From IMG/VR virus record IMGVR_UViG_2049941000_000043: 64,000 nucleotides of DNA; one strand, 5' to 3'. Both the position numbers and the translations under genes were made by a program. Below the pieces are notes generated by a model. That model saw only the letters and a program-made list of their open reading frames with translations. It ran no database searches and was not told the DNA's origin. Source of the stretch: an uncultured virus (IMG/VR IMGVR_UViG_2049941000_000043) (lineage: Duplodnaviria; Heunggongvirae; Uroviricota; Caudoviricetes). Numbering within the stretch: position 1 is the stretch's first letter; each line of letters opens with the position of its first letter. Below are positions 3,303 through 64,000 of the stretch, one piece after another.

Positions 3303-3382
3303 TCTGTCCCATTTATTGGACAGTTTCTGTACCATAAAACGGACAGTTTTTGAAAAAGTTGCAAAAAACGGCAAAATCGGTG

Positions 3383-3482
3383 TTGACAGAGCGTTTCTTT
3401 TATGGTAATAACAAGGTGGGTTGTAAGGTTTTCCTTTCCGGCCCGCCCACCCGGAGAGCGATACTCCTTTACCTTACAACCC
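3383..3482 (+). promoter_or_regulatory. Putative late promoter plus structured leader before the portal gene
   Basis: TTGACA 3383-3388, 17 nt, TGgTAATAA; perfect 12-bp stem GGGTTGTAAGGT (3418-3429) / ACCTTACAACCC (3471-3482). Confidence 0.5.
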
Positions 3483-3511
3483 TCTCCCTAAAAAGCATAG
3501 GTGGTGATACC

Positions 3512-20416: not shown

Positions 20417-20662
20417 TTGGATATGAGATATTACAAATCAGTAATAGACAATATTGTGTCCGTTTCTACACTTGATGCTGATGGAAACGGGAACATTACC
20501 GAGCAGGAATATAACACGATTCGTAATCTGTTATTGAACGCTCCTGCCGGAAAAGTTGTTGTAGAAGACGGCAATGGATATGCTTATGCCGATGCTCCAT
20601 CAACAGATGAACTAGAGGACGCAGAAGCCCTTGCCATCATTCTTGGGGGTGATTCCGAATGA
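20417..20662 (+). CDS. Hypothetical protein (fibre assembly-like)
   Basis: ORF in tail operon ending EALAIILGG. Confidence 0.5.
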   Translation: MDMRYYKSVIDNIVSVSTLDADGNGNITEQEYNTIRNLLLNAPAGKVVVEDGNGYAYADAPSTDELEDAEALAIILGGDSE

Positions 20663-21054
20663 CTAGAACAGAAGCACTCCGTATCCGTCAGATGATTGAG
20701 GACACAGCAGCACTCCTGCCGGACGATGATGCGGTAGAACGGGTCATCCTATTCCCCGTGTGGAAGACCAATGTGACATATCATATCGGTGACCGCTTTC
20801 GGTACAACGGCACTTTGTATAAGGTGGTACAGGATCATACCAGTCACGAAGCATATACACCTAATGTCACAGTCAGTCTGTATGCGGAAGTACTGCCGGG
20901 GCAGGATGGCGAGATTGGTGACTGGGTACAACCGGACAGCACAAACCCGTACATGAAAGGCGATAAGGTACGGCACAACGGCAAAGTGTGGATATCCACG
21001 ATAGACTACAATGTCTCTGAGCCAGGAATCGCCGGATGGGAAGAGGTGGTATAA
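20659..21054 (+). CDS. Carbohydrate-binding (CBM5/12-like) protein
   Basis: WKTNVTYHIGDRFRYNGTLYKV and WVQPDSTNPYMKGDKVRHNGKVW repeats. Confidence 0.75.
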   Translation: MTRTEALRIRQMIEDTAALLPDDDAVERVILFPVWKTNVTYHIGDRFRYNGTLYKVVQDHTSHEAYTPNVTVSLYAEVLPGQDGEIGDWVQPDSTNPYMKGDKVRHNGKVWISTIDYNVSEPGIAGWEEVV

Positions 21055-22563: not shown

Positions 22564-22566
22564 GGA

Positions 22567-22824
22567 GTGATACAAATGATTCTCCCGGATAAAATTTATG
22601 ACTGCATTCGGTTTGTAGCAGAACTCCTGCTTCCCGGACTCGCCACTTTGTATGCGGCTTTAGCTCCCGTGTGGGGCTTCCCATACGCACAGGAAATCGT
22701 GACCACAGTAATTGCTGTTGACACTTTCCTTGGTTTGTTTGTAAACTATCTGCGGAAGCGTTACAACCTGAATCCCGATCCAATCATTGACGAAAGGAGC
22801 GATGACGATGAAAGTGACTCTTGA
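22567..22824 (+). CDS. Holin (Dp-1-like)
   Basis: LPGLATLYAALAPVWGFPY; two TM segments; precedes amidase. Confidence 0.8.
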   Translation: MIQMILPDKIYDCIRFVAELLLPGLATLYAALAPVWGFPYAQEIVTTVIAVDTFLGLFVNYLRKRYNLNPDPIIDERSDDDESDS

Positions 22825-22892
22825 AGAGGGAGTGGAAACCAACAACGAAACCCTGGACGAACTGACGAACGGGAAAGGAGAGGAGGAGGAAA

Positions 22893-23874
22893 ATGAGCAA
22901 CAGTAAACTTGTTTCCGTGACCGTCCTGTCCCCAAACAACAGCGGAACAAGGACTATGAAAATAGATCGAATCACTCCGCATTGCGTTGTAGGGCAGATG
23001 TCAGCCGGATCGTTGGGAACGTGGTTCTCCCATTCCAGTACCCAGGCATCCAGCAACTACGGCATAGGGTGGGACGGCAAAATCGGTATGTATGTGCCGG
23101 AAGATAAGCGGTCCTGGTGTTCCAGTTCATCTGCCAACGATCAGAGGGCCGTAACCATTGAATGCGCCAGCGATACCACCGCCAAGACCGGTTACGCAAT
23201 GAAAGATGCGGTGTATGCTTCGCTCATCAAACTGTGCGTAGACATCTGTCAGCGGAATGGCAAGACCAAACTCCTGTGGATTCCTGACAAGGCGAAAGCA
23301 CTCGCCTATACTCCCAAAAAAGATGAAATGCTTTTGACTGTCCACAGGTGGTTTGCCAACAAGTCCTGTCCCGGCGAGTGGCTTTACTCCCGCCTGTCAG
23401 ACTTGGCAAACAAGGTGACAAAGGAACTGACCCCAGTAGAACCGGCTCCCGCTCCGTCTACGGGAAGCAAGGCAATTGAAGCGGGTGCTACGATTGCCCT
23501 GAAGAACGAACCTCTGTATGCTTCGTCCACAAATAAGACGGTGGCAAACAGGGTTACTGGCAATTACTACTATTGGGGTGGCCCAGTGGTGAATGGGAGA
23601 ATCCGTNNNNNNNNNNNNNNNNNNNNNNNNNNNNNNNNNNNNNNNNNNNNNNNNNNNNNNNNNNNNNNNNNNNNTGGGGATTTCGGGACAGGTAACAGGA
23701 TGGATTGACAAACCTTCCGATGTAGGTTATATTGTCTATGTGGTTCAGTCGGGCGATACTCTTCGGAAGATAGCTACGAAGTATAGCACAACCATCGCCA
23801 AGATTGGCGAAATCAATAATATCAAGAACCTGGATCTCATCAATGTCGGGCAGAAGTTGAAGATCCCCGTATAA
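22893..23874 (+). CDS. Endolysin: Amidase_2 domain, SH3-like segment, LysM (gap 23607-23674)
   Basis: ITPHCVVG, ASSNYGIG, TIECAS, HRWFANKSCPG; C-terminal YVVQSGDTLRKIA LysM. Confidence 0.9.
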
Positions 23875-23876
23875 AG

Positions 23877-24101
23877 GTGGGATTAAAAGTGATTGACAGA
23901 GAAGACATTGAACGGTTGAAAGAGATATTCGTTACCCGTCAGGAGTGTGACTCTACCGTGGACGAAATCAACAAGAAACTCGCCAATGACATGACAGAGT
24001 TTGCCGTTATAAAGACAAAGCTGAACGCTATCTTGTGGGGCATCGGCGTGATTGGGAGTGCCGTTATCGGTGTTCTCATCAAGATGATTTTTGAGAGGTG
24101 A
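23877..24101 (+). CDS. Small coiled-coil membrane protein
   Basis: C-terminal hydrophobic helix ILWGIGVIGSAVIGVLI. Confidence 0.6.
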   Translation: MGLKVIDREDIERLKEIFVTRQECDSTVDEINKKLANDMTEFAVIKTKLNAILWGIGVIGSAVIGVLIKMIFER

Positions 24102-24104
24102 CCT

Positions 24105-24407
24105 ATGCCTGACTGTAGTGCTTGCAAAGAAAACAGACTGGCTACCGAGCCTGTTCCCTACATAGTCCACGAAGCTGCCTTGGCACGGCTTGAGAGAACC
24201 GTGAAAAGGTTGTGGATTCTCGCTTTGGTTGCCGTTGCTCTATTGGTGGCTACCAATGCCCTTTGGATATGGTATGAGGGTCAGTTTCAAGACGAGAGCT
24301 GGACATATGAAGCAACCACAGACAATGGTGGTACTGCTATCGCAAGTGACGGCGAGGTGAATTATTATGGCAACGGCGAGAATAACGCACCGCAGACGGA
24401 GCCGTAA
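24105..24407 (+). CDS. Single-TM hypothetical protein
   Basis: VPYIVHE...KRLWILALVAVALLVATNALWIW. Confidence 0.65.
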   Translation: MPDCSACKENRLATEPVPYIVHEAALARLERTVKRLWILALVAVALLVATNALWIWYEGQFQDESWTYEATTDNGGTAIASDGEVNYYGNGENNAPQTEP

Positions 24408-24483
24408 GTACGGCGGTAGCACGGGCTACAGGAAGTGCCGGAACTGCGGTGGCGGTGGAAGAGTAAAAATCCGCAGAAGGTAG
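24367..24483 (+). CDS. 38-aa basic mini-protein with CxxCxGxG (not in ORF track)
   Basis: MATARITHRRRSRKYGGSTGYRKCRNCGGGGRVKIRRR*, RBS GAGGTG upstream. Confidence 0.55.
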   Translation: MATARITHRRRSRKYGGSTGYRKCRNCGGGGRVKIRRR

Positions 24484-24489
24484 TCTGCT

Positions 24490-24687
24490 ATGAAAGACTA
24501 CACCAACAGCCACATCACTTTTCTCATTGATGAACATATCCACAACAAGCGTGACCGGGAAATCATGAAGATGCACTATGTTGATGGTCTGTCTGCCGAA
24601 ATGATTGCCAATCAGATAGACTTATCTCCACGGCGCATCAGCCAAATCCTTTCTGACAGATTAATGGAGATTTCTCCGTTTCTGTAA
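24490..24687 (+). CDS. Sigma70 region-4-like HTH protein
   Basis: RDREIMKMHYVDGLSAEMIANQIDLSPRRISQIL. Confidence 0.7.
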   Translation: MKDYTNSHITFLIDEHIHNKRDREIMKMHYVDGLSAEMIANQIDLSPRRISQILSDRLMEISPFL

Positions 24688-24710
24688 TATTCTTCTACCT
24701 TCCTTCCGTA

Positions 24711-24751
24711 AAGATTCGCTCTTACTTCATAGTAAGGGCGAGTCTTTTTTT
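24711..24751 (+). terminator. Intrinsic terminator
   Basis: AGATTCGCTCTTACT / AGTAAGGGCGAGTCT stem followed by a T run. Confidence 0.75.
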
Positions 24752-24782
24752 GTACCCTATAGGCAGAAAGGGGCGATGCTTT

Positions 24783-25160
24783 ATGTGGGAACTATACAAC
24801 ACTAATCCGACAGGAAAGCACGTTGGTGACTGCACAGTAAGAGCGTTGTGCAAAGCCTTGGATATTGAGTGGGACAAAGCGTATATGAAACTCGCCGCCA
24901 AAGGTTTTGAGATGTGCGATATGCCGTCAAGCAATGCAGTCTTCGGTGCGGTTCTCCGAGAAAACGGATTTAAACGAGAAACGATTCCCAATGAATGTCC
25001 TGATTGCTACACCTTGGAAGACTTCGCTAATGACCATCCGACAGGAACATATGTTGTCGGCATGAGCGGACACGTTGCCACGGTCATTGATGGTGTCATT
25101 TACGATGCATGGCATTCAGAAGCGGAGATCCCGCTCTACGTTTGGAGAAAGGATGATTAA
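24783..25160 (+). CDS. Papain/C39-like putative cysteine peptidase
   Basis: NP...GDCTVRA (Cys), GHV (His), IYDAW (Asp). Confidence 0.6.
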   Translation: MWELYNTNPTGKHVGDCTVRALCKALDIEWDKAYMKLAAKGFEMCDMPSSNAVFGAVLRENGFKRETIPNECPDCYTLEDFANDHPTGTYVVGMSGHVATVIDGVIYDAWHSEAEIPLYVWRKDD

Positions 25161-25162
25161 CA

Positions 25163-25666
25163 ATGGCAATGTACCCTAACTACTTCCCGGTAACCTATCA
25201 GCCGAATTATTACAACCCTACGAATCCCTATCAGCCTGTGTATCCCACGCAGACGATGCCGCAGGCACAACCTGTTCAGCAGACACAGCCTGTGCAACCG
25301 CAGAATCCGTCTTCCATCCTATGGGTACGGAACAATCAGGAAGCTGCGATGTATCCAGTAGCACCTAACAATGCCGTAGCACTGTGGGATTCCGGCTCTC
25401 CTGTCATCTATCTTAAACAGGCTGATGCATCCGGGAAGCCTACCATGAAAACCTTTGACCTTGTAGAACGCATTGAGAAGCCGTCAGAGAGCATTTCTTC
25501 GCAGACAAGCGCAGACATTGCCTATGCGACAAAAGACGAACTGGCGGCTCTGGCGGGCGTTGTACGGGATGTAGACGGGGTTATATCCGAACTGAAGGAC
25601 GAGGTTAACAACCTGAAAGCCAAGACCCCAGTGCGGAAGAAGAAGGAAGTGGAAGACGATGGCTAA
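25163..25666 (+). CDS. Hypothetical protein with Tyr/Pro/Gln-rich N-terminus and C-terminal coiled coil
   Basis: WV...YPVAPN..V.LWDS...IYLKQADASGKP core. Confidence 0.7.
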   Translation: MAMYPNYFPVTYQPNYYNPTNPYQPVYPTQTMPQAQPVQQTQPVQPQNPSSILWVRNNQEAAMYPVAPNNAVALWDSGSPVIYLKQADASGKPTMKTFDLVERIEKPSESISSQTSADIAYATKDELAALAGVVRDVDGVISELKDEVNNLKAKTPVRKKKEVEDDG

Positions 25667-25898
25667 TCCGTTCTTCAATGCCCTTGGCGGTAATGCTATG
25701 GGCGGTATGAATCCTATGGCTATGCTTGCCCAGTTGCGGTCTAATCCGATGGGCTTACTGCGACAGGCGGGCTACAATGTGCCGGACAACATATCCAGTC
25801 CACAGGCAATCATTCAGCACTTAATGAACAGCGGGCAGATTAGTCAGCAACAGCTTTCCAACGCACAGAATATGGCTCAACGCTTTGGAATGCGTTAA
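25659..25898 (+). CDS. Small Gln/Met/Asn-rich hypothetical protein
   Basis: NP...IIQHLMNSGQISQQQL motif. Confidence 0.7.
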   Translation: MANPFFNALGGNAMGGMNPMAMLAQLRSNPMGLLRQAGYNVPDNISSPQAIIQHLMNSGQISQQQLSNAQNMAQRFGMR

Positions 25899-25991
25899 CT
25901 GCGTTGGATTCAACGCATATAGGTGATAAATATCAACTTTGCGAGTGTACATAGCGAAGGTGGTAAATATAAGACGAAAGGAATATGAACT

Positions 25992-26222
25992 ATGGCTCTT
26001 ACTGATGAAGGAAGCGGCTCCATTCCTGCAACGATGCTTGTAGGCCCGACTGGTTTTGGTGGTGGTATGCCCTATCCCGTTTACGGCGGTGGCAATTCCA
26101 TGTACTACTACGAAGGTGGAGAAGACTTCGCCGAACAGATGAAGGAACTTATGGAAGATGCTCCCAACGAACAGGTCAAGCAGAGAATGCGCCAGTTGAT
26201 GCAGGATATGCAGCAGATGTAA
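25992..26222 (+). CDS. Hypothetical protein, possibly a deletion-fusion of two genes
   Basis: Gly-rich N-half joined abruptly to a helical ELMEDAPNEQVKQRMRQLM C-half. Confidence 0.55.
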   Translation: MALTDEGSGSIPATMLVGPTGFGGGMPYPVYGGGNSMYYYEGGEDFAEQMKELMEDAPNEQVKQRMRQLMQDMQQM

Positions 26223-26279
26223 CCGAATATCGGAAACCAACATCATAGAATCAGCGATACATTCGGTGATGTCTCATCC

Positions 26280-26314
26280 AAAGAGAGAGTCGGTAACCCC
26301 GGCTCTTTCTTTTT
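26280..26314 (+). terminator. Intrinsic terminator
   Basis: AGAGAGAGTCGG / CCGGCTCTTTCT stem plus T run. Confidence 0.75.
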
Positions 26315-26349
26315 GCTCAAATTTGTATAAAAAAATTATAAAAAAGTTA

Positions 26350-26377
26350 TTGACAAACGGATTCAAACTGTTATAAT
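26350..26377 (+). promoter_or_regulatory. Strong early promoter
   Basis: TTGACA-16nt-TATAAT with an A-rich upstream element. Confidence 0.8.
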
Positions 26378-26410
26378 AAAGACATCCAAGACAGGAAGGG
26401 AGAAGGAACA

Positions 26411-26590
26411 ATGAAAGCGATCAGAGATATTATCTGCCTGTTGGCGGGGCTGTTTATCCTTGGCGTTGCCGGGGGGCTTGAGAAAGGGCTTATCTCCATT
26501 GGCGGTGCGCTCCTTGCGTGGGGCATCTCCGCAATGGTCATCAGCATAGTAATTCTGATAGAAAGGAGTAGGACAAATGATAGGACATAA
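26411..26590 (+). CDS. 59-aa two-TM membrane protein (not in ORF track)
   Basis: MKAIRDIICLLAGLFILGVAGGLEKGLISIGG...; homologous to 58126-58290. Confidence 0.65.
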   Translation: MKAIRDIICLLAGLFILGVAGGLEKGLISIGGALLAWGISAMVISIVILIERSRTNDRT

Positions 26591-26762
26591 GCTGTGGGAT
26601 TTCGGTTTCTGCCCGGAAGACAGGAGAGAACCGCCGGATCTTGACTTCTCTTCGGACGAACTGGACGAGGAAGAGATGTCCTGGGCTTACGAAGACGATC
26701 CGTGGCGGGACTACTACGATGGCGATGAAAACGATCTGATGGGAACAAGAAAGGGGTATTAA
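26577..26762 (+). CDS. Highly acidic small protein
   Basis: D/E-rich (DELDEEE, YEDD, DGDEND); RBS AGGAG. Confidence 0.6.
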   Translation: MIGHKLWDFGFCPEDRREPPDLDFSSDELDEEEMSWAYEDDPWRDYYDGDENDLMGTRKGY

Positions 26763-26763
26763 A

Positions 26764-26967
26764 ATGAGAGCGAGAGAATGTCCGTTCTGCGGATCTCCGA
26801 GGATTGAGTTCGCAGAGGAAGAGATGATGGAAAAGACGGTGTACAAAGTGCGGTGCATGGCGTGTGGGGCATCTGGGCCTGTCAACTTCGTGTCGGAAAC
26901 AAAATGCAAAGCCGTTCAGAATTGGGATCGGCGTAGTGAGTTCCGAACCTACACAGAGGTGAACTGA
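26764..26967 (+). CDS. Lar-like zinc-ribbon protein
   Basis: CPFCG...CMACGASGP...AVQNWDRR. Confidence 0.7.
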   Translation: MRARECPFCGSPRIEFAEEEMMEKTVYKVRCMACGASGPVNFVSETKCKAVQNWDRRSEFRTYTEVN

Positions 26968-27329
26968 TGGAAGACTGCGGACTGAAGAGTTACCAGGACA
27001 TCCGAGAGACGGAAGAGCCGGAATACGAAATCCCGATGGACGAGCCACATCGTGTGGCACTTCTTAAGGTATATGTAGCGGAGTTTTTTACCGATGTAAT
27101 GGATGTACAGGATGACACGAAAGCGAACCTATGGTTTGACTGGATGCCTGACAAAGTGATGGTGTATACCACCACGGGAAGTGCGTGGCATCAGAGTGGC
27201 CCAATAGAGATGATTGCCGAAGCGAACCTGGACGAAATTTACGAATCGTCCATAGAACACATTTTTGATGAACTCCACGAATCCCTGTGGGATTGGAGAG
27301 ACAAGAAACTGGGGGTTGACAATGGGTAA
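26967..27329 (+). CDS. Acidic hypothetical protein
   Basis: Translationally coupled ORF, 120 aa. Confidence 0.55.
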   Translation: MEDCGLKSYQDIRETEEPEYEIPMDEPHRVALLKVYVAEFFTDVMDVQDDTKANLWFDWMPDKVMVYTTTGSAWHQSGPIEMIAEANLDEIYESSIEHIFDELHESLWDWRDKKLGVDNG

Positions 27330-27504
27330 GAAGAAAAAGGGAAACAACAGACGGCGCAACAACACCCTGATGGTGATGCTTGACGATGCCGAAAAAGCGT
27401 TCGTTAGGGAGAAAGCCGAAAGCTATGGGATGACGATGTCCTCTTATGCGAGGTTCAGTCTTCTGATTGGAATGGACAAGGTGAAGCCGAATGACGGAAA
27501 GTGA
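27322..27504 (+). CDS. Ribbon-helix-helix DNA-binding protein
   Basis: LMVMLDDAEKAFVREKAESYGMTMSSYAR. Confidence 0.65.
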   Translation: MGKKKKGNNRRRNNTLMVMLDDAEKAFVREKAESYGMTMSSYARFSLLIGMDKVKPNDGK

Positions 27505-28288
27505 ATACCGACAGAAAGACGGCATCTCACGATCCGAACTGTGGAAGATGATGGAGTCGCCGGAGAAATTCAAATGGTATCAGGAGAATCCCGCTCCTAT
27601 GACTCCGACTTTCATCTTCGGTGCGGCTGCACACAAACTGATGCTTGATTCCGAAACCTGGGGAGAAGAGTTTGCCGTAGCCCCCATTATTGACAGACGG
27701 ACAAAAGAAGGAAAATCTCAATACGCTGAATGGCTTGACAAGGTTGTTGGTCGGGAAATCATCAGTGCAGAGGATTACGAAACCATACAGGACATGGTGT
27801 CCGTTGCAATGGGTATTTCATTCGTGGAGAAACTGCTTGCCGGGGAAAAAGAAACTCCTCTCTTTTGGACGGACGAATTGACAGGAGAGCCGTGCAAGGC
27901 AAGACTTGACTGTGTGACGATGGTTGCAGACAAGCCCGTTATCGTAGACTACAAAACCACCAACGATGCAAGCACGGACGGGTTTATGAGATCCGCTATC
28001 AAGTACGGATATGACTTTCAGGCTGCGATGTACTCTGAAGCATACAAGGCAAACTTTGGAATCGTTCCAACCTTTGTCTTCATAGCACAGGAGAAGACCG
28101 CTCCGTACTCCGTCAATATCCTGCAAGCGGACGATGTGTTTGTTAAGAGAGGGTATGACATCTTCCGTCAGTTGATCGGTACATACCACGATTGTAAGCA
28201 GAGTGGCAATTGGTGGGGCTACCTTGGCCCGTACAATGTGATAAACAACCTTGCCCTTCCGGCTTGGTTGGCGAAGGAGATTGAGTAA
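27491..28288 (+). CDS. RecE/ExoVIII-like PD-(D/E)xK exonuclease (DUF3799-like)
   Basis: ISRSEL, G.AAH, CKARLD, IVDYKTT, YDFQAAMY. Confidence 0.85.
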   Translation: MTESEYRQKDGISRSELWKMMESPEKFKWYQENPAPMTPTFIFGAAAHKLMLDSETWGEEFAVAPIIDRRTKEGKSQYAEWLDKVVGREIISAEDYETIQDMVSVAMGISFVEKLLAGEKETPLFWTDELTGEPCKARLDCVTMVADKPVIVDYKTTNDASTDGFMRSAIKYGYDFQAAMYSEAYKANFGIVPTFVFIAQEKTAPYSVNILQADDVFVKRGYDIFRQLIGTYHDCKQSGNWWGYLGPYNVINNLALPAWLAKEIE

Positions 28289-28587
28289 TGGACAGAGGGA
28301 AACTGGAAAAAGCGAAGAGGTACTTTGCTTACGAAATACGCTTCAACAGCAGTCAGTTTGGCAATGAGGAGATTGTCCCGTATCTCCAGATTGCGTTTTC
28401 TGCAATCAAAGAGAAACTGGAGAACAAAGATCCGATTGAAGATGCCATCCAGTATTTCCGTGAGGAATCCGACCGCTATGCCCGTGCGTCGGAGATTAAC
28501 GGCTGCGAGATGACCGAGGAATGGGCATTCAACAAAGAGATGTGCGAAATCGCCATCAAACTACTTGAGGAGAAATGTGATGTATAA
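28288..28587 (+). CDS. Hypothetical protein
   Basis: Coupled ORF with an internal helical repeat. Confidence 0.5.
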   Translation: MDRGKLEKAKRYFAYEIRFNSSQFGNEEIVPYLQIAFSAIKEKLENKDPIEDAIQYFREESDRYARASEINGCEMTEEWAFNKEMCEIAIKLLEEKCDV

Positions 28588-29443
28588 AAAAGAAATGATC
28601 CCGGTAGAGGATACCGAAATCGTGGAACGGGATGTGATTCCGGGGCCGAATGTTCCCGCTCCCATCAATCTTCCGACAGACACCATCAACCAGGGTACTG
28701 TCGCAATCGAAGCAAGCCGAGCCGTTGCGGAAGCGCAGGGCAAACTGCTGATAGCGAAGAAGTTTCCCAGGGATGAGATTGCTGCCTACTCCAAGGCCAT
28801 TGAAGCCTGTCGGAGAAAGACGATGGCGAAGAAAGCGTTTTATGCCTATCCCCGTGGTGGGCAGACCGTTGAAGGGCCTACGATCCGATTCGCCGAGGAA
28901 CTTGCCCGTTGTTGGGGCAACATTGACTACGGCATCAAGGAACTGTCGCAGGACGGTGGCAAGTCCGAACTTCAGGCTTACGCTTGGGACTTGGAAACGA
29001 ATGCCCAGTCGGTACAGAATTTCACGAATCCCCATCAGCGTGAGGTCAAGGGAAAGATGCAGAGTTTGACCAGTCAGCGTGACATCTACGAAGCGAACGC
29101 AAATATGGCTACTCGCCGCATGAGAGCTAGAATCCTCGCCATCCTTCCGGCGTGGTTCGTAGAGGATTGCATTGCCGAATGCAAGAAGACACTTGCCGGG
29201 GACAACGAAGAACCACTGATTGACCGAGTGAAGAAGATGGTCATCCAGTTTCAGAAATTCGGTGTTTCCCAGGAGATGATTGAACGGCGGTTGAAGCGTA
29301 AAGTGGAAACCATGACCGCTGATGACTTCACCGAGTATATTGGAATCTTCAACGCCATCAAAGAGGGCGAGAGCAAGGTAGCAGAATGGTTCGCTGCCGA
29401 GCCGGAAGCCAAGGATCTGACAGAAGCACTGAAAGGAGAATAA
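28580..29443 (+). CDS. Putative single-strand annealing/recombination protein
   Basis: Between exonuclease and SSB; AKKFPRD, YPRGG..VEGPTIRFAEELAR.WGN motifs. Confidence 0.5.
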   Translation: MYKKEMIPVEDTEIVERDVIPGPNVPAPINLPTDTINQGTVAIEASRAVAEAQGKLLIAKKFPRDEIAAYSKAIEACRRKTMAKKAFYAYPRGGQTVEGPTIRFAEELARCWGNIDYGIKELSQDGGKSELQAYAWDLETNAQSVQNFTNPHQREVKGKMQSLTSQRDIYEANANMATRRMRARILAILPAWFVEDCIAECKKTLAGDNEEPLIDRVKKMVIQFQKFGVSQEMIERRLKRKVETMTADDFTEYIGIFNAIKEGESKVAEWFAAEPEAKDLTEALKGE

Positions 29444-29446
29444 GAT

Positions 29447-29839
29447 ATGGCACTCAATATCATAGCATTGACTGGCAGACTCGTCAGAGAACCGGAAGTC
29501 AACAAAACGCAGAGCGGTGTTTCCGTATGCGGTTTTTCCATAGCGGTGGACAGACCGTACAGAACCGGAGAGGAGAAGAAAGCAGACTTCTTTGACTGCA
29601 CAGCTTGGAGACACAATGCCGATTTTCTGAAGAGGTATTTCCACAAGGGAGATATGGTCGGAGTGTCCGGGCATCTTCAGACAAGAACATGGGAAACCGA
29701 GGACGGACAGAAGCGCAGAGTGGTTGAAGTGGTTGCGGACACTGTTTCATTTTTGACTGGCAAGAAGGAGTCCGATACCGCTCCTGTTCATGGCGACTTT
29801 GCCCCGGTTGATGCCGAAGATGGCGATCTTCCTTTCTGA
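29447..29839 (+). CDS. ssb: Single-stranded DNA-binding protein
   Basis: GRLVREPE OB-fold; acidic DLPF tail. Confidence 0.93.
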   Translation: MALNIIALTGRLVREPEVNKTQSGVSVCGFSIAVDRPYRTGEEKKADFFDCTAWRHNADFLKRYFHKGDMVGVSGHLQTRTWETEDGQKRRVVEVVADTVSFLTGKKESDTAPVHGDFAPVDAEDGDLPF

Positions 29840-29841
29840 CT

Positions 29842-30279
29842 ATGTACATCTTTGACAGCCGAGAAAAGAAGAACGATCACATCAAGGCTTACTTTGACCG
29901 AAACGGCATTCCATACAAAGTGGAAAAACTGGATGTGGGAGACTATATGGTTGAAGGTGGCATCGTGTCTGTAGACAGAAAACGCAATCTGTCAGAACTG
30001 TGTACCAACCTCACAAACAGAGATGACCACGCAAGATTTTGGCGGGAAGTCCGGCGGGCAAAGGAATGTGGCATTAAACTGATAGTCCTGTGCGAACACG
30101 GTGGACAGATCCACGGCATTCAGGATGTTGCAAACTGGAAATCCAAGTACAGTACAGTATCAGGCAGATCGCTGATGGAAGAAATCTATAAGTGCCACAT
30201 ATCCTACGGAGTGGAATTTCTGTTCTGCGATAAGCGGAGTACAGGAAGACGGATTGTTGAGTTGTTGGGGGAAGGGTAA
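29842..30279 (+). CDS. ERCC4-domain nuclease
   Basis: DSREK, KLDVGDY, VDRKRNLSEL. Confidence 0.85.
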   Translation: MYIFDSREKKNDHIKAYFDRNGIPYKVEKLDVGDYMVEGGIVSVDRKRNLSELCTNLTNRDDHARFWREVRRAKECGIKLIVLCEHGGQIHGIQDVANWKSKYSTVSGRSLMEEIYKCHISYGVEFLFCDKRSTGRRIVELLGEG

Positions 30280-30845
30280 TGAATTATTCCTATGAAATAC
30301 GCTCTCGCCTGTCATCCCGTGAGGTATTGGAGTTTTACGGCTTTGATGTGGATCGGGCGGGCTTTTGCCATTGCCCGTTCCATCAGGGCGATAATACTGG
30401 AAGCCTGAAAGTCTACGATGGCAACAAAGGGTGGCATTGCTTCGGTTGCGGAGCGGGGACATCCGTCATAGACTTCGTTATGAAATACTTCGGTCTTTCC
30501 TTCTATGATGCGGAGAAGAAACTGAACGAAGACTTTCGCATGGGTTTGCCAATCGGTGACAGGTTGTCTGACGAGCAGTGGAACGAAGCAAAACGCAAAG
30601 CAGCCGAACGGAAGAAACTACAAGCGGAGAGAGAAGCACAGCACGATAAACTTCTGACGGCTTACCACACGGCTCTTGACCTGTGGATATGGTTAGATAA
30701 GATGAAGCGTGAAAACGCTCCACAATCGCCGCAGGACGGCTTCTGCGAGTCTTATGTGTTCGCCGTCAGTTGGATAGATGCGGTTGGATCAGAGCTAGAC
30801 GAAGCAACGGACAAACTGTTGGAATTTGAAAGGAGTAAAAGATGA
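30279..30845 (+). CDS. CHC2 zinc-finger (primase N-terminal-like) protein
   Basis: CPFH...HCFGCG...VIDFV. Confidence 0.85.
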   Translation: MNYSYEIRSRLSSREVLEFYGFDVDRAGFCHCPFHQGDNTGSLKVYDGNKGWHCFGCGAGTSVIDFVMKYFGLSFYDAEKKLNEDFRMGLPIGDRLSDEQWNEAKRKAAERKKLQAEREAQHDKLLTAYHTALDLWIWLDKMKRENAPQSPQDGFCESYVFAVSWIDAVGSELDEATDKLLEFERSKR

Positions 30846-31670
30846 GAGAGGGAAAGATGATGATTAGGTTATATGATGAAGATTGCGAGACCTTGATTGC
30901 GTTTATTAAGATGCACGAACGTGACGAAATTCCAGAAGATGTGTGGGAAATCTGCATGAGGCTTTATGATGCCGTCTACGGGGAGAGTGATTGGTTGTGA
31001 GACTGATTGATGGTGATGCACTGCGAAAAGCCATGTACCACGAAGCGTTTGAAACGGATACCGATATGCAAAGATGGGAAAGTGGCTGTTGGATTCGGTA
31101 CAAGATGTTTGAGAACGCTTTGGATGCTGCTCCAACCATAGATGCCGCTCCTGTTGTACGCTGCCGGGGTTGCAAGGTCAAAAACGAGGAGCATTGTCAG
31201 TGGTGGCACGGAGTTCCAGCGGATGAGTTCTACGTGCGTGGGGAGAGAGGAAAGACGATGCCTGACACTATTTTTTATCCAAAGGAAAATGCTGAATATG
31301 TCAGAGTAGTTCGGTGCAAGAATTGCAAATGGTGGGGAGACCTTGACCCCCAAACTGACTGGTTTTACTGCTATTGTCATGTGCTTGAATGCTCTACAGA
31401 GCCTGGCTGGTTTTGTGCTGACGGAGAAAGGAAAGATGATGAGACTGATTGATATTGAAGCACCGTGCAAAATCGAAATTGAACTTGACGGTGAAAAGTG
31501 TCACGCAACCGTTACCGCTCCCACCATAGATGCTGTGCCGGTGGTGCACGCGCACTTGATAAACCCCGACCCTTATGGAGACTGTTCAAACTGTGGTTAT
31601 CTCATAGACATTCGGCAAGAGTACAACTACTGCCCTAACTGTGGAGCGAAGATGAGAGAGGCGGGCGACA

Positions 31671-56110: not shown

Positions 56111-57160
56111 TTACGGCGTTTCAAAATGAGAAAAGAAGGAGCGCAGCTGCTCCACNNNNNNNNNNNNNNNNNNNNNNNNNNNNNNCGCCGTCATCTGCCC
56201 GGAGGACAGGTGGGTGTAGATTTTCTGCATCGCGTTCACGTCTCCCCAGCCGCCGAGACGAGCGGCCTCAAGGACTGGCACCTGCCTTTCCCAGCATAGG
56301 GAGGCGAACGAGTGCCGGAGACCGTGCACGCCGACTTCCGGGAGGCCTTCCCTGCGGCAGATCCGGTTCACCTGATTGTATACGGAGTTCGGGTGGCCCT
56401 TCATGACGCGGCCTGTCTTGTCCTCCACCTTCCGGAGGGCATCGGTGAGCTGCGGGATCAGGATGGGCACGTCACGCGTGCTGGATTTCGTCTTGTTAGT
56501 CTTCTTCTCTACGAGGCCGTCCGTGCCAATGACCACCGACCGCCGGACGTGGATGATCTCGTTCGTTAGGTCTATGTCCTTCCAGTCGAGCGCAGCTATC
56601 TCTGACCGCCGGAGGGAGCACAGGGCGAGCAGGGCGGGGATTTCACACCGTTCCCCTTGCACTGCCCTACAGAACTGCAAAACCTCCGCAGAGGTCAGCC
56701 AGGGACGCGAGGCGGCGGGCACGGCGGGAAGGTTCACTCCCTCAAAGTCCCTGCCGTATTCCTTCAGCGCGGAGGAGACGAGGCCCCAGGCGTTCCGCAC
56801 AGTCTTCGGGGAGACGAGCTTCGCCTCATCCGAGACCATGCGCTGGAGGGTTCTTCTGTCCAGATCCGAGAGCTTCCGGCCCATGTACGCGGAGAAGCGG
56901 TTCTCGCGGTAGGATCTGTACGCCTTCACAGTCGCCGGAGAAAGCACCGGCTCCCTCAAATCAATATAGTCATCTACCACGGCCCCCAGAGTTAAGTTCT
57001 GGGGGCTTTTTCTTGTATGCCCATCTCTCAACAGGAGGGCCTGTGATATGGCCTCCTGCGGGCTGTCAGCGGTCACAGAGCGGCGCACGCCGTCCACGGT
57101 GACCTGACAACGCCAGGAACCGGACGGCAGCTCTATGGCCTTCGGGTACTTTTTCTTCAT
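56111..57160 (-). CDS. int: Tyrosine integrase (small gap near 3' end)
   Basis: LRRSEIAALDW, KTKSS, HGLRHSFAS, LGGW, IYTHL; adjacent to attP. Confidence 0.93.
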   Translation of the reverse strand: MKKKYPKAIELPSGSWRCQVTVDGVRRSVTADSPQEAISQALLLRDGHTRKSPQNLTLGAVVDDYIDLREPVLSPATVKAYRSYRENRFSAYMGRKLSDLDRRTLQRMVSDEAKLVSPKTVRNAWGLVSSALKEYGRDFEGVNLPAVPAASRPWLTSAEVLQFCRAVQGERCEIPALLALCSLRRSEIAALDWKDIDLTNEIIHVRRSVVIGTDGLVEKKTNKTKSSTRDVPILIPQLTDALRKVEDKTGRVMKGHPNSVYNQVNRICRREGLPEVGVHGLRHSFASLCWERQVPVLEAARLGGWGDVNAMQKIYTHLSSGQMTAXXXXXXXXXXVEQLRSFFSHFETP

Positions 57161-57179
57161 CGGTAGTCCTCCAGCCGGA

Positions 57180-57509
57180 TCAGCCGACCGCGATTCCCTT
57201 TTTATAGGGAGCGAGCAGACCGTCCACGGCTTCCTGGATCGGACGCGGCGCGTCAAGGTATGCGTCCACCATCTTCGGCGTGGCGGAGGAGGAGAAACCG
57301 GCGAGCACGTTCGGCTCGCAGTCTAGAGCCTCGCAGATCCGGAAGAACATCGGCAGGCGCGGCTGGATCTTCCCGGTCGTCCAGTCGGAGACGGTTGCAC
57401 GAGAGACACCGAGGATGGCACCGAGTTCAGCTTTTGACATATCCGCGCGGTCAATCTGCCGGGCGAGATTCCTGGCAAAAATGGCGGCGTATTCCTGTTC
57501 AGTCTTCAT
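57180..57509 (-). CDS. CI-like XRE repressor
   Basis: MSKAELGAILGVSRATVSDWTTGKIQP HTH; divergent from Cro. Confidence 0.85.
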   Translation of the reverse strand: MKTEQEYAAIFARNLARQIDRADMSKAELGAILGVSRATVSDWTTGKIQPRLPMFFRICEALDCEPNVLAGFSSSATPKMVDAYLDAPRPIQEAVDGLLAPYKKGIAVG

Positions 57510-57591
57510 CTTCATGTCCTCCAAGCGTAAGGTGTGGCCTTATTTTATGGGCTGAAAGCGAAAAGTTTTTGACTAAACTGTAAATTAATTA

Positions 57592-57620
57592 TTGACAAGT
57601 GCAAGTTGTAGCCTTACAAT
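57592..57620 (+). promoter_or_regulatory. Early lytic promoter
   Basis: TTGACA-17nt-TACAAT upstream of the cro-like gene. Confidence 0.8.
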
Positions 57621-57652
57621 GACAGCGTAAAACTTGCAGAGGAGGTGAACAC

Positions 57653-57853
57653 ATGACGATGGATCTGAAGACAGCCAGAGTGGCGGCGAAGATGACGCAA
57701 GCGGAAGCAGCCGCCAAGCTGGGGACGACCACGGCAAGCCTGTGCCGATGGGAGCGAGGGGAGAGAACACCGAAGGTGACCACGTTCTTCCGGCTCTGTG
57801 CATTGTACGGAGTCAGCCCTTCGGACATTTTTATGCCTTGGATGCAAGGGTAA
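57653..57853 (+). CDS. Cro-like XRE HTH protein
   Basis: MTQAEAAAKLG...RWERGERTP. Confidence 0.85.
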   Translation: MTMDLKTARVAAKMTQAEAAAKLGTTTASLCRWERGERTPKVTTFFRLCALYGVSPSDIFMPWMQG

Positions 57854-57898
57854 GTTGCAAACANNNNNNNNNNAGGACTGACAAAGTAAGGTGAGAAC

Positions 57899-58129
57899 AT
57901 GAACAGAGGCGACGAGAAGATCCGGGAGGTTTTCGCCGGCTGGAAGGCAGTAAATCAGCTGACCGCGCAGGACGCGGCGGCGCGGACGAAGATCCCGGAG
58001 AGGACATGGCAGAGACGGCAGAAGGACTTCGGAACGATGACCCTCGATGAGTTCCGGAAGCTGGTAGAAGCAACACGAGCCACGGATGAGGACATCATCC
58101 GGATGGTAACTGGAAGGAGAAGAACATGA
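57899..58129 (+). CDS. HTH protein
   Basis: DAAARTKIPERTWQRR...MTLDEFRKL. Confidence 0.65.
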   Translation: MNRGDEKIREVFAGWKAVNQLTAQDAAARTKIPERTWQRRQKDFGTMTLDEFRKLVEATRATDEDIIRMVTGRRRT

Positions 58130-58290
58130 TCCTGGAAGCATTGATTATCCTTTTCGGCCTGTTCGGGCTGGGAGTAGTAGGCGGTCTGGAGCGCGGCCTG
58201 CTGGGCATCGGAGCAAGCATCATCCTCTGGATACTGACGGCGGCAGCCATCACGATCCTCGTGAGCATCCGGAGAGCAGTGCGGCGGTAA
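58126..58290 (+). CDS. 54-aa two-TM membrane protein (not in ORF track)
   Basis: MILEALIILFGLFGLGVVGGLERGLLGIGASIILW...; RBS AAGGAG; homologue at 26411. Confidence 0.7.
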   Translation: MILEALIILFGLFGLGVVGGLERGLLGIGASIILWILTAAAITILVSIRRAVRR

Positions 58291-58636
58291 TGCGTGGCGC
58301 AGCAGTGCATTGGTAATGCGTGGACGGCGAAGGCCATCCCATGCACGGATAGCGGGGGCGCAGCAAGGCATGGATTTGCAACGGCGAAGTGAGCACTGCG
58401 ATGGCATTGAAGAGCATCGCCATGGCATGGCAGTTCACAGCAATGACGTGACAGCAGAGGCAAGGAGGAGCACTGCCGCGAGCGGCACAGAGATGAGCGG
58501 ATTTGCGAAGGCTATGCGCGGGATCGCGATGGCTATGCGTAGACAGGAGAGGCGTAGGCATAGCTTGGCCTCGATGGCAACGGCGAAGTTTGGAACAGAA
58601 AGCAAGGGAATAGAACTGCGTTGAGTAGAAAGGAGG
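58275..58636 (+). ncRNA. Putative guide-RNA array with 5-nt periodicity (NG[C/A]-NN modules)
   Basis: Ten in-register pentamers at 58459-58508 (ggcaa ggagg agcac tgccg cgagc ggcac agaga tgagc ggatt tgcga); NGC-NNN-GG(C/T/A) junction recurs 13 times; expression as RNA is inferred. Confidence 0.65.
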
Positions 58637-58640
58637 ACAC

Positions 58641-58859
58641 ATGAAGACGATGGCACAGGTAGACAAGATCATCGCGCACATCCTGGCATATGGCAGCATC
58701 AGCCAGCTGGAGGCGTTCCAGCTGTACGGATGCTTCCGTCTGGCCTCGCGGATCTGCGACCTGAAGCGAGCCGGCTACAAGATCGGCAAGACCATGGAAG
58801 AGGGCAAAAACCGCTACGGAGAGCCGGAACGGCACGCCCGCTACTTTCTCATCAAATGA
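58641..58859 (+). CDS. Winged-HTH protein
   Basis: GSISQLEA...GCFRLASRICDLKRAGY; strong RBS AAAGGAGG. Confidence 0.8.
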   Translation: MKTMAQVDKIIAHILAYGSISQLEAFQLYGCFRLASRICDLKRAGYKIGKTMEEGKNRYGEPERHARYFLIK

Positions 58860-58876
58860 ACAAAGGAGAACAGAAC

Positions 58877-59470
58877 ATGAAGGAAATGACAATTCGCATC
58901 ACATTCACGGAGGATCTCCTCGGATCTTCCAGCAACGATCCCCATCTGCACGAGAACTACATAGCCAGCAAAGCTCCGGACGCATGGAGCACCGCCGAAG
59001 AGGTCGAGGCCCTCGGCATCGATGCGGTAGTCGAGAACGGCAAGACCATTTTTCCGAAGGACACGGACGGCACGCCCATCTTCTGGGACTACCAGATCAA
59101 GGGATACTTCAAGGAATCCTGCAAGGCCCTGTCCAAAGTGCCCGGTACGCTGTCCAGCAAGCTGAAAGCCTACAAACAGCAGATTGACCTGCGGATCTTC
59201 CCCGCACCCCGCCGGATCAGGATCACGGAGACCGGCAAGCGGTACGACCTGCAGAGGCCTCTCCGGGCCTCCACGCCGATGGGCGAACGCATCGCACTGG
59301 CGAACAGCGAGACGATCCGCGCCGGAGCTTCCATCGAGTTCACCGTGCGCCTGCTGGTAGACGATGACGCGAACCTTGTCCGCGAGTGGCTGGACTACGG
59401 AGCACTCCACGGTATGGGCCAGTGGCGCAACGCCGGTTACGGCAGATTCACATGGGAGGAGATCGCATGA
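58877..59470 (+). CDS. Stand-alone Cas7/Csm3-like RAMP superfamily protein (197 aa)
   Basis: N-terminal strand IRITFTEDLLGS, P....QIKGYFKE helix, ETIRAGASIEFTV, C-terminal Gly-rich loop GMGQWRNAGYGRF; RBS AAAGGAG. Confidence 0.75.
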   Translation: MKEMTIRITFTEDLLGSSSNDPHLHENYIASKAPDAWSTAEEVEALGIDAVVENGKTIFPKDTDGTPIFWDYQIKGYFKESCKALSKVPGTLSSKLKAYKQQIDLRIFPAPRRIRITETGKRYDLQRPLRASTPMGERIALANSETIRAGASIEFTVRLLVDDDANLVREWLDYGALHGMGQWRNAGYGRFTWEEIA

Positions 59471-59751
59471 AGATCCTGAAGAAAGAACCCGGCAAGGGTT
59501 ACTACGCGAAGGAGATCCCGAACACGCTGGAGGCCATGCAGGCCGAAGTGGGCGGGTACATCGAGACGGTGACGGTCGACAGGACTTGCTGCATCGTCTG
59601 CGACGATGAGGGGCGCATCAAGGAGCTGCCCTACAACACCACGCTCGGCGGTATCGAGTTCTACGGCCCCATCTTCATTGTGGGAACAAAGAATGACGGC
59701 TTCTGCGATGTGCCGAAGCTCGTCCAGCAGATCCTGGAGGTGACAGCATGA
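59467..59751 (+). CDS. DUF3846-like protein
   Basis: NTLEAMQAEVGGYIE, CDDEGR..LPYN. Confidence 0.75.
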   Translation: MKILKKEPGKGYYAKEIPNTLEAMQAEVGGYIETVTVDRTCCIVCDDEGRIKELPYNTTLGGIEFYGPIFIVGTKNDGFCDVPKLVQQILEVTA

Positions 59752-60230
59752 CACTGTATGAGATCGCGCAGGAGATGGCCACCCTCATCGACCCGGAGAC
59801 CGGGGAGATCCGGGACTACGAAGCCTTTGAAGAGCTTCAGATGGCCAGAGACGAGAAGATAGACAACACGGCGAAGTGGATCATCGAGCTGGAGGCCGAG
59901 GCGAAGATGGTCAAGGAGAGAGCGGACGAGCTGACCGAGAGGGCCAGAGCGGCGAAGAAGAAGGCCGAACGGCTGCGTGAGTTCCTGCAGGAGTATCTCG
60001 CCGGAGAGAAGCGCAAGACGGCGGACTACACCATCGGCTACAGAAAGACGAAGGCCGTGGAGATCACGGACGAGAAGGCGGCGGAGATGTGGCTTGTCGA
60101 GCATTGCTTCTTTGACTGCATGAAGACCACCACCACGCTGAACAAGACCGCCATGAAGAAGCACATCGAGTTTGGCGACCAGATCCCCGGTGCTGAACTC
60201 GTAGAGCGGCAGACGATGCAGGTGAAGTGA
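59748..60230 (+). CDS. Siphovirus Gp157-like protein
   Basis: MTLYEI, DPETGEI, coiled coil, IPGAELVE. Confidence 0.85.
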   Translation: MTLYEIAQEMATLIDPETGEIRDYEAFEELQMARDEKIDNTAKWIIELEAEAKMVKERADELTERARAAKKKAERLREFLQEYLAGEKRKTADYTIGYRKTKAVEITDEKAAEMWLVEHCFFDCMKTTTTLNKTAMKKHIEFGDQIPGAELVERQTMQVK

Positions 60231-60520
60231 TGGTGAAAGTGATCATACACACGAAGGGCAAGACCCTCCGAGACAAGGTCATGAACGTGACCAGGAAGTG
60301 CATGGAGCTGAAGGATCAGTTCCCCTGCTTCTCGTGGGAGTTCCAGAACTACAGAGGCAGGCTGACCTTCACGGCGGCGCACTGGAGCGGAGACGAGCGG
60401 GAGGAGTTCCAGTTCCCGCTCCATCTGGTCGAAGTCAACGAGGACTACAAGTACATCATGGATCAGCTGAACGAGCTGAAGTGGTCGGCTCTGTTCTACG
60501 AGGAGGAGAACAATGGATAA
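60227..60520 (+). CDS. Hypothetical protein
   Basis: Translationally coupled ORF. Confidence 0.55.
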   Translation: MMVKVIIHTKGKTLRDKVMNVTRKCMELKDQFPCFSWEFQNYRGRLTFTAAHWSGDEREEFQFPLHLVEVNEDYKYIMDQLNELKWSALFYEEENNG

Positions 60521-63380: not shown

Positions 63381-64000
63381 NNNNNNNNNNNNNNNNNNNN
63401 NNNNNNNNNNNNNNNNNNNNNNNNNNNNNNNNNNNNNNNNNNNNNNNNNNNNNNNNNNNNNNNNNNNNNNNNNNNNNNNNNNNNNNNNNNNNNNNNNNNN
63501 NNNNNNNNNNNNNNNNNNNNNNNNNNNNNNNNNNNNNNNNNNNNNNNNNNNNNNNNNNNNNNNNNNNNNNNNNNNNNNNNNNNNNNNNNNNNNNNNNNNN
63601 NNNNNNNNNNNNNNNNNNNNNNNNNNNNNNNNNNNNNNNNNNNNNNNNNNNNNNNNNNNNNNNNNNNNNNNNNNNNNNNNNNNNNNNNNNNNNNNNNNNN
63701 NNNNNNNNNNNNNNNNNNNNNNNNNNNNNNNNNNNNNNNNNNNNNNNNNNNNNNNNNNNNNNNNNNNNNNNNNNNNNNNNNNNNNNNNNNNNNNNNNNNN
63801 NNNNNNNNNNNNNNNNNNNNNNNNNNNNNNNNNNNNNNNNNNNNNNNNNNNNNNNNNNNNNNNNNNNNNNNNNNNNNNNNNNNNNNNNNNNNNNNNNNNN
63901 NNNNNNNNNNNNNNNNNNNNNNNNNNNNNNNNNNNNNNNNNNNNNNNNNNNNNNNNNNNNNNNNNNNNNNNNNNNNNNNNNNNNNNNNNNNNNNNNNNTT

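Follow-up and report, generated by a model that had tools for sequence, protein, structure and literature searches.

A five-base module array beside a Cas7-like gene in an uncultured temperate phage is very probably a guide-RNA array of a divergent VIPR branch

VIPR is a CRISPR-related, RNA-guided DNA silencer that was first described in preprints of 2026 (bioRxiv 10.64898/2026.04.26.720920, with a companion structure preprint, 10.64898/2026.04.26.720927). It consists of Vipr, a RAMP protein of ~20 kDa, and of guide RNAs (vrRNAs) made of 9-16 YNNGG (GGY/NN) repeats with a conserved 3' tail, in which the NN bases recognise double-stranded DNA with one target base skipped per repeat, and the complex represses competing phages and satellites (10.64898/2026.04.26.720920). 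The same source distinguishes seven types and six vap accessory genes and describes variant repeats (NNNGG, YNNNG, and NNNNG), "staggered arrays with overlapping vrRNAs", and ribozyme-interspersed arrays, the vrRNAs being separated by hammerhead ribozymes in some type I and V systems; clusters or arrays of 5-mers other than GGY are also on record in later preprints that extend the biology of the system (10.64898/2026.10.21.760802). Vipr forms a right-handed filament with one protomer per repeat and with six subunits per turn in the absence of DNA and five in its presence, and the Vipr of phage SUSP1 reads G1 via H17 and D177 and G2 via R138 and W178, while its pocket for Y3 includes R179 (10.64898/2026.04.26.720927). 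Herein we analyze 64,000 nucleotides (nt) of an uncultured virus (IMG/VR record IMGVR_UViG_2049941000_000043), referred to as the window, and conclude that a G-rich tract near its right end is very probably the vrRNA array of a phage-borne VIPR system, with a Cas7-like RAMP of 197 amino acids (aa) as its effector. The array appears to represent a divergent branch of VIPR, with a looser repeat and a second level of order at ~26-36 bases. The system itself is known from the 2026 preprints and the locus adds nothing categorically new to it. The two elements concerned are:

58271..58636, + strand: putative vrRNA-type array of ~70 N-G-(C/A)-N-N modules, period 5.1 nt, in 13 super-units (20-51 nt)
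58877..59470, + strand: vipr-like gene, encoding a 197-aa single-domain Cas7-like RAMP

The tract is non-coding and lies between a 54-aa open reading frame (ORF, 58126-58290) and a 72-aa winged-helix gene (58641-58859), and each of its super-units has GG at the start and, except for the last, a 6-nt module at the close. An earlier reading of the DNA, made from the letters alone (the sequence-only reading), had parsed the tract by hand into these modules, and a replay of the module lengths from 58286 reproduces that parse exactly. It reaches 58636 with 69 modules, 67 of which have G at position 2 (41 as GC and 21 as GA), and 62 of the 69 fit N-G-(C/A)-N-N; GG opens each of the 13 units, GC occupies positions 2-3 of each of the 12 six-base closers, and the units measure 26, 20, 25, 26, 20, 21, 35, 51, 21, 26, 25, 25, and 30 nt. 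The same reading had claimed a selected five-base grammar that cannot stem from codons and had proposed Fourier and autocorrelation analysis against shuffled sequence, and the outcome agrees with the claim in that the periodicity is far beyond chance. Specifically, the identity autocorrelation of the array gives z = 4.7, 3.1, 5.2, 5.2, and 4.7 at lags 5, 10, 15, 21, and 26 relative to 1000 dinucleotide-preserving shuffles. The Fourier spectrum has a single sharp peak at 5.10 nt with a power of 13.0 and a period-3 power of 0.8, compared with a 99th percentile of 2.8 and a best off-tract value of 3.0 for 1185 sliding 300-nt windows across the whole 64 kb. The five-base rhythm is real, unique within the 64-kb window, and no product of the parse. 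The periodic signal comes mostly from G (73% G in one phase bin) and extends without a break from ~58260 to ~58600; at the left end the modules overlap the closing codons of the 54-aa ORF, and at the right end what was parsed as the final "modules" is the ribosome-binding site of the following gene. Tandem Repeats Finder gave no repeat and no unit consensus on the tract, which is therefore a degenerate pattern and no one-unit satellite. An Rfam scan of 57000-60000 returned no credible family, hammerheads included (top match E 1.4), and neither strand folds better than shuffles (z = -0.7 for + and -1.3 for -), so that the array as a stable structured RNA was dropped from consideration.

The 197-aa protein is a Cas7-type RAMP by profile and predicted fold. 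A profile of 30 sequences matches the type VII CRISPR Cas7 (200 aa, E 5.5e-4) and Csm4 (8.7e-3), in both cases over the C-terminal glycine-rich loop. With its AlphaFold2 model (pLDDT 80.4, pTM 0.74), Foldseek retrieves 136 PDB chains at E <= 1e-3, which are of the Cas7 family throughout among the matches listed; the top matches are Csm3, type VII Cas7, Cmr4, Cas7-11, and type IV-B Csf2, with TM ~0.55, and the Foldseek probability is 1.00 for Csm3, Cas7, and Cmr4 chains. The protein carries a C-terminal glycine-rich loop of the form G-x-G-Q-W-R (the G-loop) and a conserved arginine-rich thumb loop, with a loop at R127-R138 that is invariant in places, and it thereby has the features of a Vipr effector, namely small size and a RAMP fold built on one RRM core, with glycine-rich loop and thumb. 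It has at least 7951 homologues at E <= 1e-3, none of which contains a Pfam domain. A DNA similarity search against INPHARED phages matched the gene and not the array, and tblastn did not reach SUSP1. As a reference for comparison, the 195-aa ORF at 28474-29061 of phage SUSP1 has H17, K33, E71, M72, R138, C173, D177, W178, and R179 at their published numbers, and, as a positive control, our periodicity scan ranks the two gaps flanking the SUSP1 vipr gene as the top of 50 kb, with a period of 5.0.

The gene and the array also occur together at other loci. A G-rich array of period 5.1-5.2 was found within 3 kb in 10 of 11 viral contigs that encode a homologue, and the remaining contig is cut near the gene. 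A scan of species-representative genomes for homologues gave 80 loci, which are mostly from Clostridia but also from Coriobacteriia, Bacteroidales, Negativicutes, Chloroflexi, Planctomycetes, Acidobacteria, and one archaeal bin. At 74 of these 80 loci there is a G-rich array of period 5.05-5.2 (power >=6), nearly always abutting the gene on the gene's strand; the six loci below the cut-off have peaks of 4.2-5.9, four of them at the gene's edge. A laxer detector called 101 arrays (median 460 nt, range 200-1070) in 85 of 95 loci, and exactly one in the whole window. On the strand of the gene, 100 of the 101 arrays have more G than C. Of the 90 loci that contain a vipr ORF, 55 have their nearest array no more than 150 nt downstream of the gene, 15 have it at most 150 nt upstream, and in 4 it overlaps the gene's edge; at 8 others the array is more distant, and at the remaining 8 it is undetected. 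RAMP gene and array are a near-obligate module, in which it is the pattern and not the sequence that is conserved across phyla. This conservation, together with the silence of Tandem Repeats Finder, upholds the contention of the sequence-only reading that the tract is no product of simple satellite decay.

The large set of arrays also defines the grammar of the branch. In a Viterbi-trained grammar fitted to the 101 arrays, an anchor G, present in 92% of modules versus 68.5% in shuffles, is followed by C (55%) or A (28%), and modules are 5 nt (81%), 6 nt (16.5%), or 4 nt (2%) long with a mean of 5.148. The 6-nt modules are regularly spaced, since gaps of 5-7 modules make up 67% of the total versus 20% expected, and the distances between them are mainly 26 nt (24%), 31 nt (24.5%), 36 nt (12.6%), and 21 nt (8%). 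Independently of any model, the G autocorrelation, which is 0.36 at lag 5, is back up to 0.30 at lags 26 and 31. Modules that follow a 6-mer have G immediately before the anchor in 89% of cases, compared with 25-28% for module indices 1-6 and 37% for indices >=7 taken together, and the 6-nt modules thus create a conserved GG at the junction. The phase is tighter than random mixing of 5- and 6-mers would give: for 67 of 100 arrays, the residual variance is smaller than the 5th percentile of permutations. The suggestion that the 6-nt modules act as register resets, which had been made from the one array, is strengthened by these data.

How the arrays vary was measured in 6 alignable pairs of relatives. 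In the register of the sequence-only reading, mismatch is lowest at G2 (7%), followed by position 3 (22%), position 1 (25%), and positions 4-5 (29-31%), and the 6-mers in these alignments hardly vary at their first two bases and at their last. The scaffold is thus conserved with hypervariable positions around it, and the expectation that mismatches would fall unequally on the five positions is borne out. However, variation is not confined to the last two positions, as had been proposed, but extends to positions 1 and 3. The related proposal that the free positions serve as guides agrees with the published VIPR mechanism and with the presence of a Vipr-like RAMP gene downstream. Indels of >=5 nt between relatives are 5k or 5k+1 long in 12 of 15 cases, showing that arrays mostly gain or lose whole modules or super-units. 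Overall, the earlier interpretation of the tract as a guide array is supported.

Based on what was obtained here, namely the periodic grammar, the conservation of the pattern, its strand, and the near-obligate pairing with a RAMP gene, we put forward the following mechanism, in which the binding of one protomer per repeat, filament formation, DNA targeting, and repression are taken by analogy from the published type II systems. We propose that an early promoter transcribes the array together with the RAMP gene and that RAMP protomers would bind the RNA, one per 5-nt module, to form a helical filament. The fixed G and the C or A that follows would be held by the glycine-rich loop and thumb of the RAMP, and the variable bases would be displayed to pair discontinuously with the DNA of a rival phage or satellite, leading to its silencing. 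The mechanism in this branch would be the same as in type II, with a relaxed scaffold, N-G-M, instead of G-G-Y. The extra base in every 5-7 modules would either delimit guides of 26-36 nt, in the manner of the "staggered" arrays, or re-phase a long filament once per turn. Its spacing corresponds to the protomer count per filament turn in the structure preprint (6 and 5) and may reflect either the geometry of the filament or a 1-nt overlap of "staggered" vrRNAs.

Comparison with the type II VIPR of SUSP1 and of a Pseudomonas fulva prophage shows several common elements. These are a small (~20 kDa) single-domain RAMP with a G-loop and thumb, a G-rich pentanucleotide array that adjoins the gene on the gene's strand, here as a tandem array in a long intergenic gap beside vipr, and a phage or prophage setting. 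The registers can be superimposed such that N1 G2 M3 N4 N5 of this locus corresponds to G1 G2 Y3 N4 N5, and the conserved W and R of the G-loop are those that in SUSP1 contact G2 and Y3. The differences are that only G2 is fixed in most modules here, with G1 recurring once per 5-7 modules; that position 3 is C or A here and C or T there; and that the array is one continuous tract of 350 nt (200-1070 nt in relatives), whereas type II arrays consist of ~100-nt vrRNAs of 9-16 repeats with a structured tail on each. In addition, the locus has no vap1 homologue, the protein belongs to no PHROG, and H17 and D177 are replaced by S/T and Q. The non-canonical arrays described in the first preprint (10.64898/2026.04.26.720920) and the clusters of 5-mers other than GGY (10.64898/2026.10.21.760802) have the same kind of relaxed scaffold with one fixed G, and the array fits the "related consensus" set of that preprint (NNNGG, YNNNG, and NNNNG). 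In the "staggered" arrays, a shift of 1 nt from one guide to the next would agree with the GG-plus-one-base junctions seen here. The absence of tails and ribozymes from the array leaves this architecture as a candidate, and, as judged from the Methods text and the legend of fig. S18, the two-level grammar is possibly that of the staggered arrays.

Two viral contigs (L012 and L013, positions 3001-4660 of each) carry a Vipr of the SUSP1 type between two arrays of period 4.9, with a gene of the HTH_39 family directly upstream. The 243-aa protein, which was found via the HTH_39 gene, is assigned to this type by BLASTP (8e-12) and by phrog_4652 (1.6e-24). The arrays in these contigs have a conserved GG, an NNNGG-like unit, and occasional 4-mers, and their mismatches at positions 5 and 1 are 8% and 20%. 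The two residues that read G1 in SUSP1 (H17 and D177) correspond to S/T17 and Q182 in the 197-aa family, in which the W and R of the G-loop are invariant, while the Viprs of L012 and L013 keep a His and an acidic residue at the G1-reading positions and their arrays keep GG. We infer that the requirement for G1 may be relaxed in this branch, which S/T17 and Q182 would fit, in a comparison of three clades by a weak alignment.

Several observations weigh against assigning the locus to VIPR. Direct similarity between the effectors is marginal, as hhalign of the 197-aa family against SUSP1 Vipr aligns 172 columns from end to end with E 0.006 and a probability of 6%, and a profile-to-profile comparison of the two gives E 0.016 over the G-loop only. 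The 197-aa protein matches no Pfam family and no PHROG, including phrog_4652, which holds SUSP1 Vipr. Canonical GG[C/T]NN accounts for 20 of the 69 modules, with a longest run of 2, and the array departs from that consensus; the published array caller, which requires >=4 tandem GG[C/T]NN units, would miss it for that reason. Periodicity, Rfam, and folding show the array to be uninterrupted by any conserved 3' tail, pseudoknot, or ribozyme. No accessory gene is conserved among the relatives, where the commonest neighbour family (SSB) is found at 16 of 91 loci. The pairing of array and effector is also not absolute, because a 1409-nt metagenome contig from run X7 joins a near-copy of the small ORF and array (aligned to 58073-58877 of the window, with 18 other letters and 26 gap positions) to a different 384-nt insert and then to a gene whose start resembles the SUSP1-type Vipr of L012 rather than the vipr-like gene of the window. 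This contig suggests that two Vipr types are exchanged at one locus.

A further point of this kind comes from the search for targets, for which the database was the window plus the 95 loci with arrays masked (1.5 Mb), far smaller than those of the preprints. The sequence-only reading had proposed to concatenate the NN pairs and look for matches with gaps of 0-3 nt, and in a search of this kind seeds from 7 modules of NN with skips of 0-3 and three choices of position gave no meaningful excess over controls in this local sequence; with a 1-nt skip, as in the published rule, there were 132 seed matches compared with 121.7 in shuffled-order controls. Seeds of 14-16 nt from six blocks of positions likewise gave no meaningful excess in the 1.5 Mb, in a search whose shuffled control was unmatched in query number, so that the control for the 7-module NN search is the only fair one. 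A small excess of 6 versus 2.0 (positions 2-5, skip 1) has the array's own spacing and probably comes from array remnants that escaped masking. These nulls do not exclude targets because a database of 1.5 Mb is far too small. As for transcription, contigs from one RNA library cover 58325-58693 and parts of the vipr-like gene, although such contigs cannot show RNA ends, strand, or processing, and they are a weak hint that the array is transcribed because RNA libraries can contain DNA.

The alternative that survives best, with a small chance of being correct, is that the tract is a decoy or sponge RNA, which is bound by Vipr-type proteins, has no targeting information of its own, and soaks up or redirects the effector of a competitor or of the phage itself. 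The length, continuity, and lack of tails of the array would suit such a role, as would the outcome of the local target searches and the run X7 contig that pairs the array with another vipr type, and there is a precedent in stand-alone vrRNAs of satellites that redirect a phage's VIPR (October 2026 preprint). However, the rapid divergence of the variable positions around a retained scaffold is what guides would be expected to show, the array is nearly always beside its own effector gene, and the local database carries little weight against targets. Less probable still is a site in double-stranded DNA, where modules spaced by half a helical turn (~10.3/2 bp) would serve a phage protein at a replication origin or on a nucleoprotein scaffold. 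The period of 5.1-5.2 is near half a turn of B-DNA, 67 of 100 arrays hold their phase more closely than a random mixture of 5- and 6-mers would, and the array is in the early/replication region. On the other hand, a duplex site would not need the excess of G over C on the gene's strand that is seen in 100 of 101 arrays, the partner is predicted to be a RAMP of RNA-binding type, the period is 4.9 in L012 and L013 and 5.0 in SUSP1, and the phase-locking results from a discrete GG plus one extra base per 5-7 modules. The last alternative concerns two features within the tract:

58310..58624, + strand: 104-aa ORF over the array, judged spurious (no period 3, no Pfam or PHROG match)
58378..58390, + strand: 13-nt direct repeat, copy 1, spanning a super-unit junction (copy 2 at 58577-58589)

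That the tract is a functionless, decaying pentanucleotide satellite or slippage product, or else the translated 104-aa ORF, is scarcely credible, since the ORF that spans it has neither a period of 3 nor a protein family and most related loci lack a long ORF over the array (except L005, where a 275-aa ORF covers the whole array), and since, despite short direct repeats and a deletion variant, no unit consensus is detected by Tandem Repeats Finder and pattern rather than sequence is conserved across phyla. The deletion variant is a low-depth metagenome contig (depth 2.6, run X6) that joins 58377 to 58577, such that the 199 nt between the copies of the 13-nt repeat are gone and eight super-units are taken out in register, which hints at contraction of the array by recombination.

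Within the preferred reading, in which the tract is a VIPR guide array, we also considered whether the branch has its own form of the code and is read either as one turn-phased filament of 70-200 protomers or as very short guides of 26-36 nt. With a single G fixed in each module, as many as four of its bases might be free. We regard this proposal as tentative and on balance unlikely.

Other systems with a periodic protein-RNA architecture are more distant. The Cas7 backbone of class 1 CRISPR (Csm3 of type III-A and Cas7 of type VII; PDB 6xn3 and 8yhe) has the same fold (Foldseek E 3e-7, TM 0.55), the glycine-rich loop, and the thumb-mediated periodic flipping of bases along the guide RNA. It differs in that the period in CRISPR is 6 nt (5+1) with arbitrary spacers (PMC13069675), in contrast to 5.1 nt and a sequence-specified scaffold at this locus. 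No repeat-spacer array, Cas5, Cas6, or Cas10 was found by Pfam and PHROG scans of 10 ORFs (57180-60520) and by Rfam over 57000-60000, and these scans together with the neighbours in related loci gave no other cas-like family. By these scans the locus does not have the make-up of a class 1 CRISPR-Cas system, there being no direct-repeat family of ~60-79 nt period and the Cas7-like register being 5.1 and not 6 nt. TRAP, which binds 11 (G/U)AG triplets separated by 2-3 nt in a trp leader tract of ~53 nt, is comparable in that one protein subunit occupies each unit of an RNA with a 5-6-nt rhythm, but it has no RAMP fold, forms a ring and not a filament, and has no guide function. A TRAP-like ring binder was set aside once the neighbouring RAMP gene was found, as was a G-rich tract for Rho or R-loops, which had been weighed early.

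The array is situated in the early rightward operon of a temperate phage. Integrase and cI-like repressor genes are on the minus strand nearby, and the order rightward is a promoter-like site, a cro-like gene, the array, the HTH_39 gene, the 197-aa gene, DUF3846, and a Gp157/Gam-like gene. With the window being a virus record and integrase, cI-like, cro-like, and Gp157/Gam-like genes flanking the locus, its location is viral or proviral, and runs of bovine gut metagenomes contain 97-98% of the sampled words of the window. The remaining features of the locus are:

57592..57620, + strand: early rightward promoter-like site, TTGACA, 17-nt spacer, TACAAT (11 of 12 consensus matches, a consensus match only)
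58126..58290, + strand: 54-aa hydrophobic ORF of no family; the run X7 contig covers this ORF and the array
58641..58859, + strand: 72-aa winged-helix (HTH_39) gene between array and vipr-like gene (Pfam HTH_39 2.1e-16, phrog_4973)

There is no terminator-like site between the promoter-like site and the array, and by its sequence the promoter would transcribe the cro-like gene, array, and vipr-like gene as one operon. The 72-aa HTH_39 protein is a possible accessory (vap-like) DNA binder of the system. The HTH_39 family also precedes the SUSP1-type vipr in L012 and L013, and it is distinct (phrog_4973) from that of SUSP1 vap1 (phrog_5926). Among the upstream neighbours of vipr in related loci it was found in 0 of 84, and it was rejected as a conserved partner of the 197-aa family. 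The window contains 1785 masked bases in 15 runs of N (e.g., 57864-57873, 56156-56185, and 63381-63998), and one such run, of 10 N, falls in the gap that separates the cro-like gene from the ORF after it, shortly before the array region.

Some of the related loci have unusual arrangements. One 86-kb contig contains two modules of vipr plus array (L063 at 68347-78964 and L066 at 20454-31071) with 770-nt arrays that are 100% identical, representing either a duplicated prophage or an assembly repeat. Three separate arrays are present in L095 (321-1010, 5781-6530, and 6631-6890), which is binned as an archaeon, and in L064 (4661-4930, 6251-6760, and 7571-8000), where the third has a period of 4.95 compared with 5.15. 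The upstream neighbour of vipr in L021 (4248-4940) is a protein of metallo-beta-lactamase fold that matches the anti-Pycsar Apyc1 family with E 4.7e-6, which is sub-threshold by the Pfam cut-off.

VIPR has only recently been described as a way of recognising DNA with an RNA guide, and it has been proposed as an ancestor of CRISPR. The locus described here puts a rumen phage, and with it a very large, gut-associated protein family that is unannotated in databases, very probably inside this system. It also provides the quantitative grammar of a branch with a relaxed scaffold, with a single fixed G and a GG-plus-one junction at 26, 31, or 36 nt, together with the gain and loss of whole modules and a correlated change of the two G1-reading residues. 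If it is true that this branch uses a different pairing rule or guide length, the design space of compact programmable DNA binders would be wider, and automatic detection would improve, because the published GG[C/T]NN caller would miss this array. A turn-phased filament or short guides, if either were true, would be a pairing rule and an architecture new to experiment.

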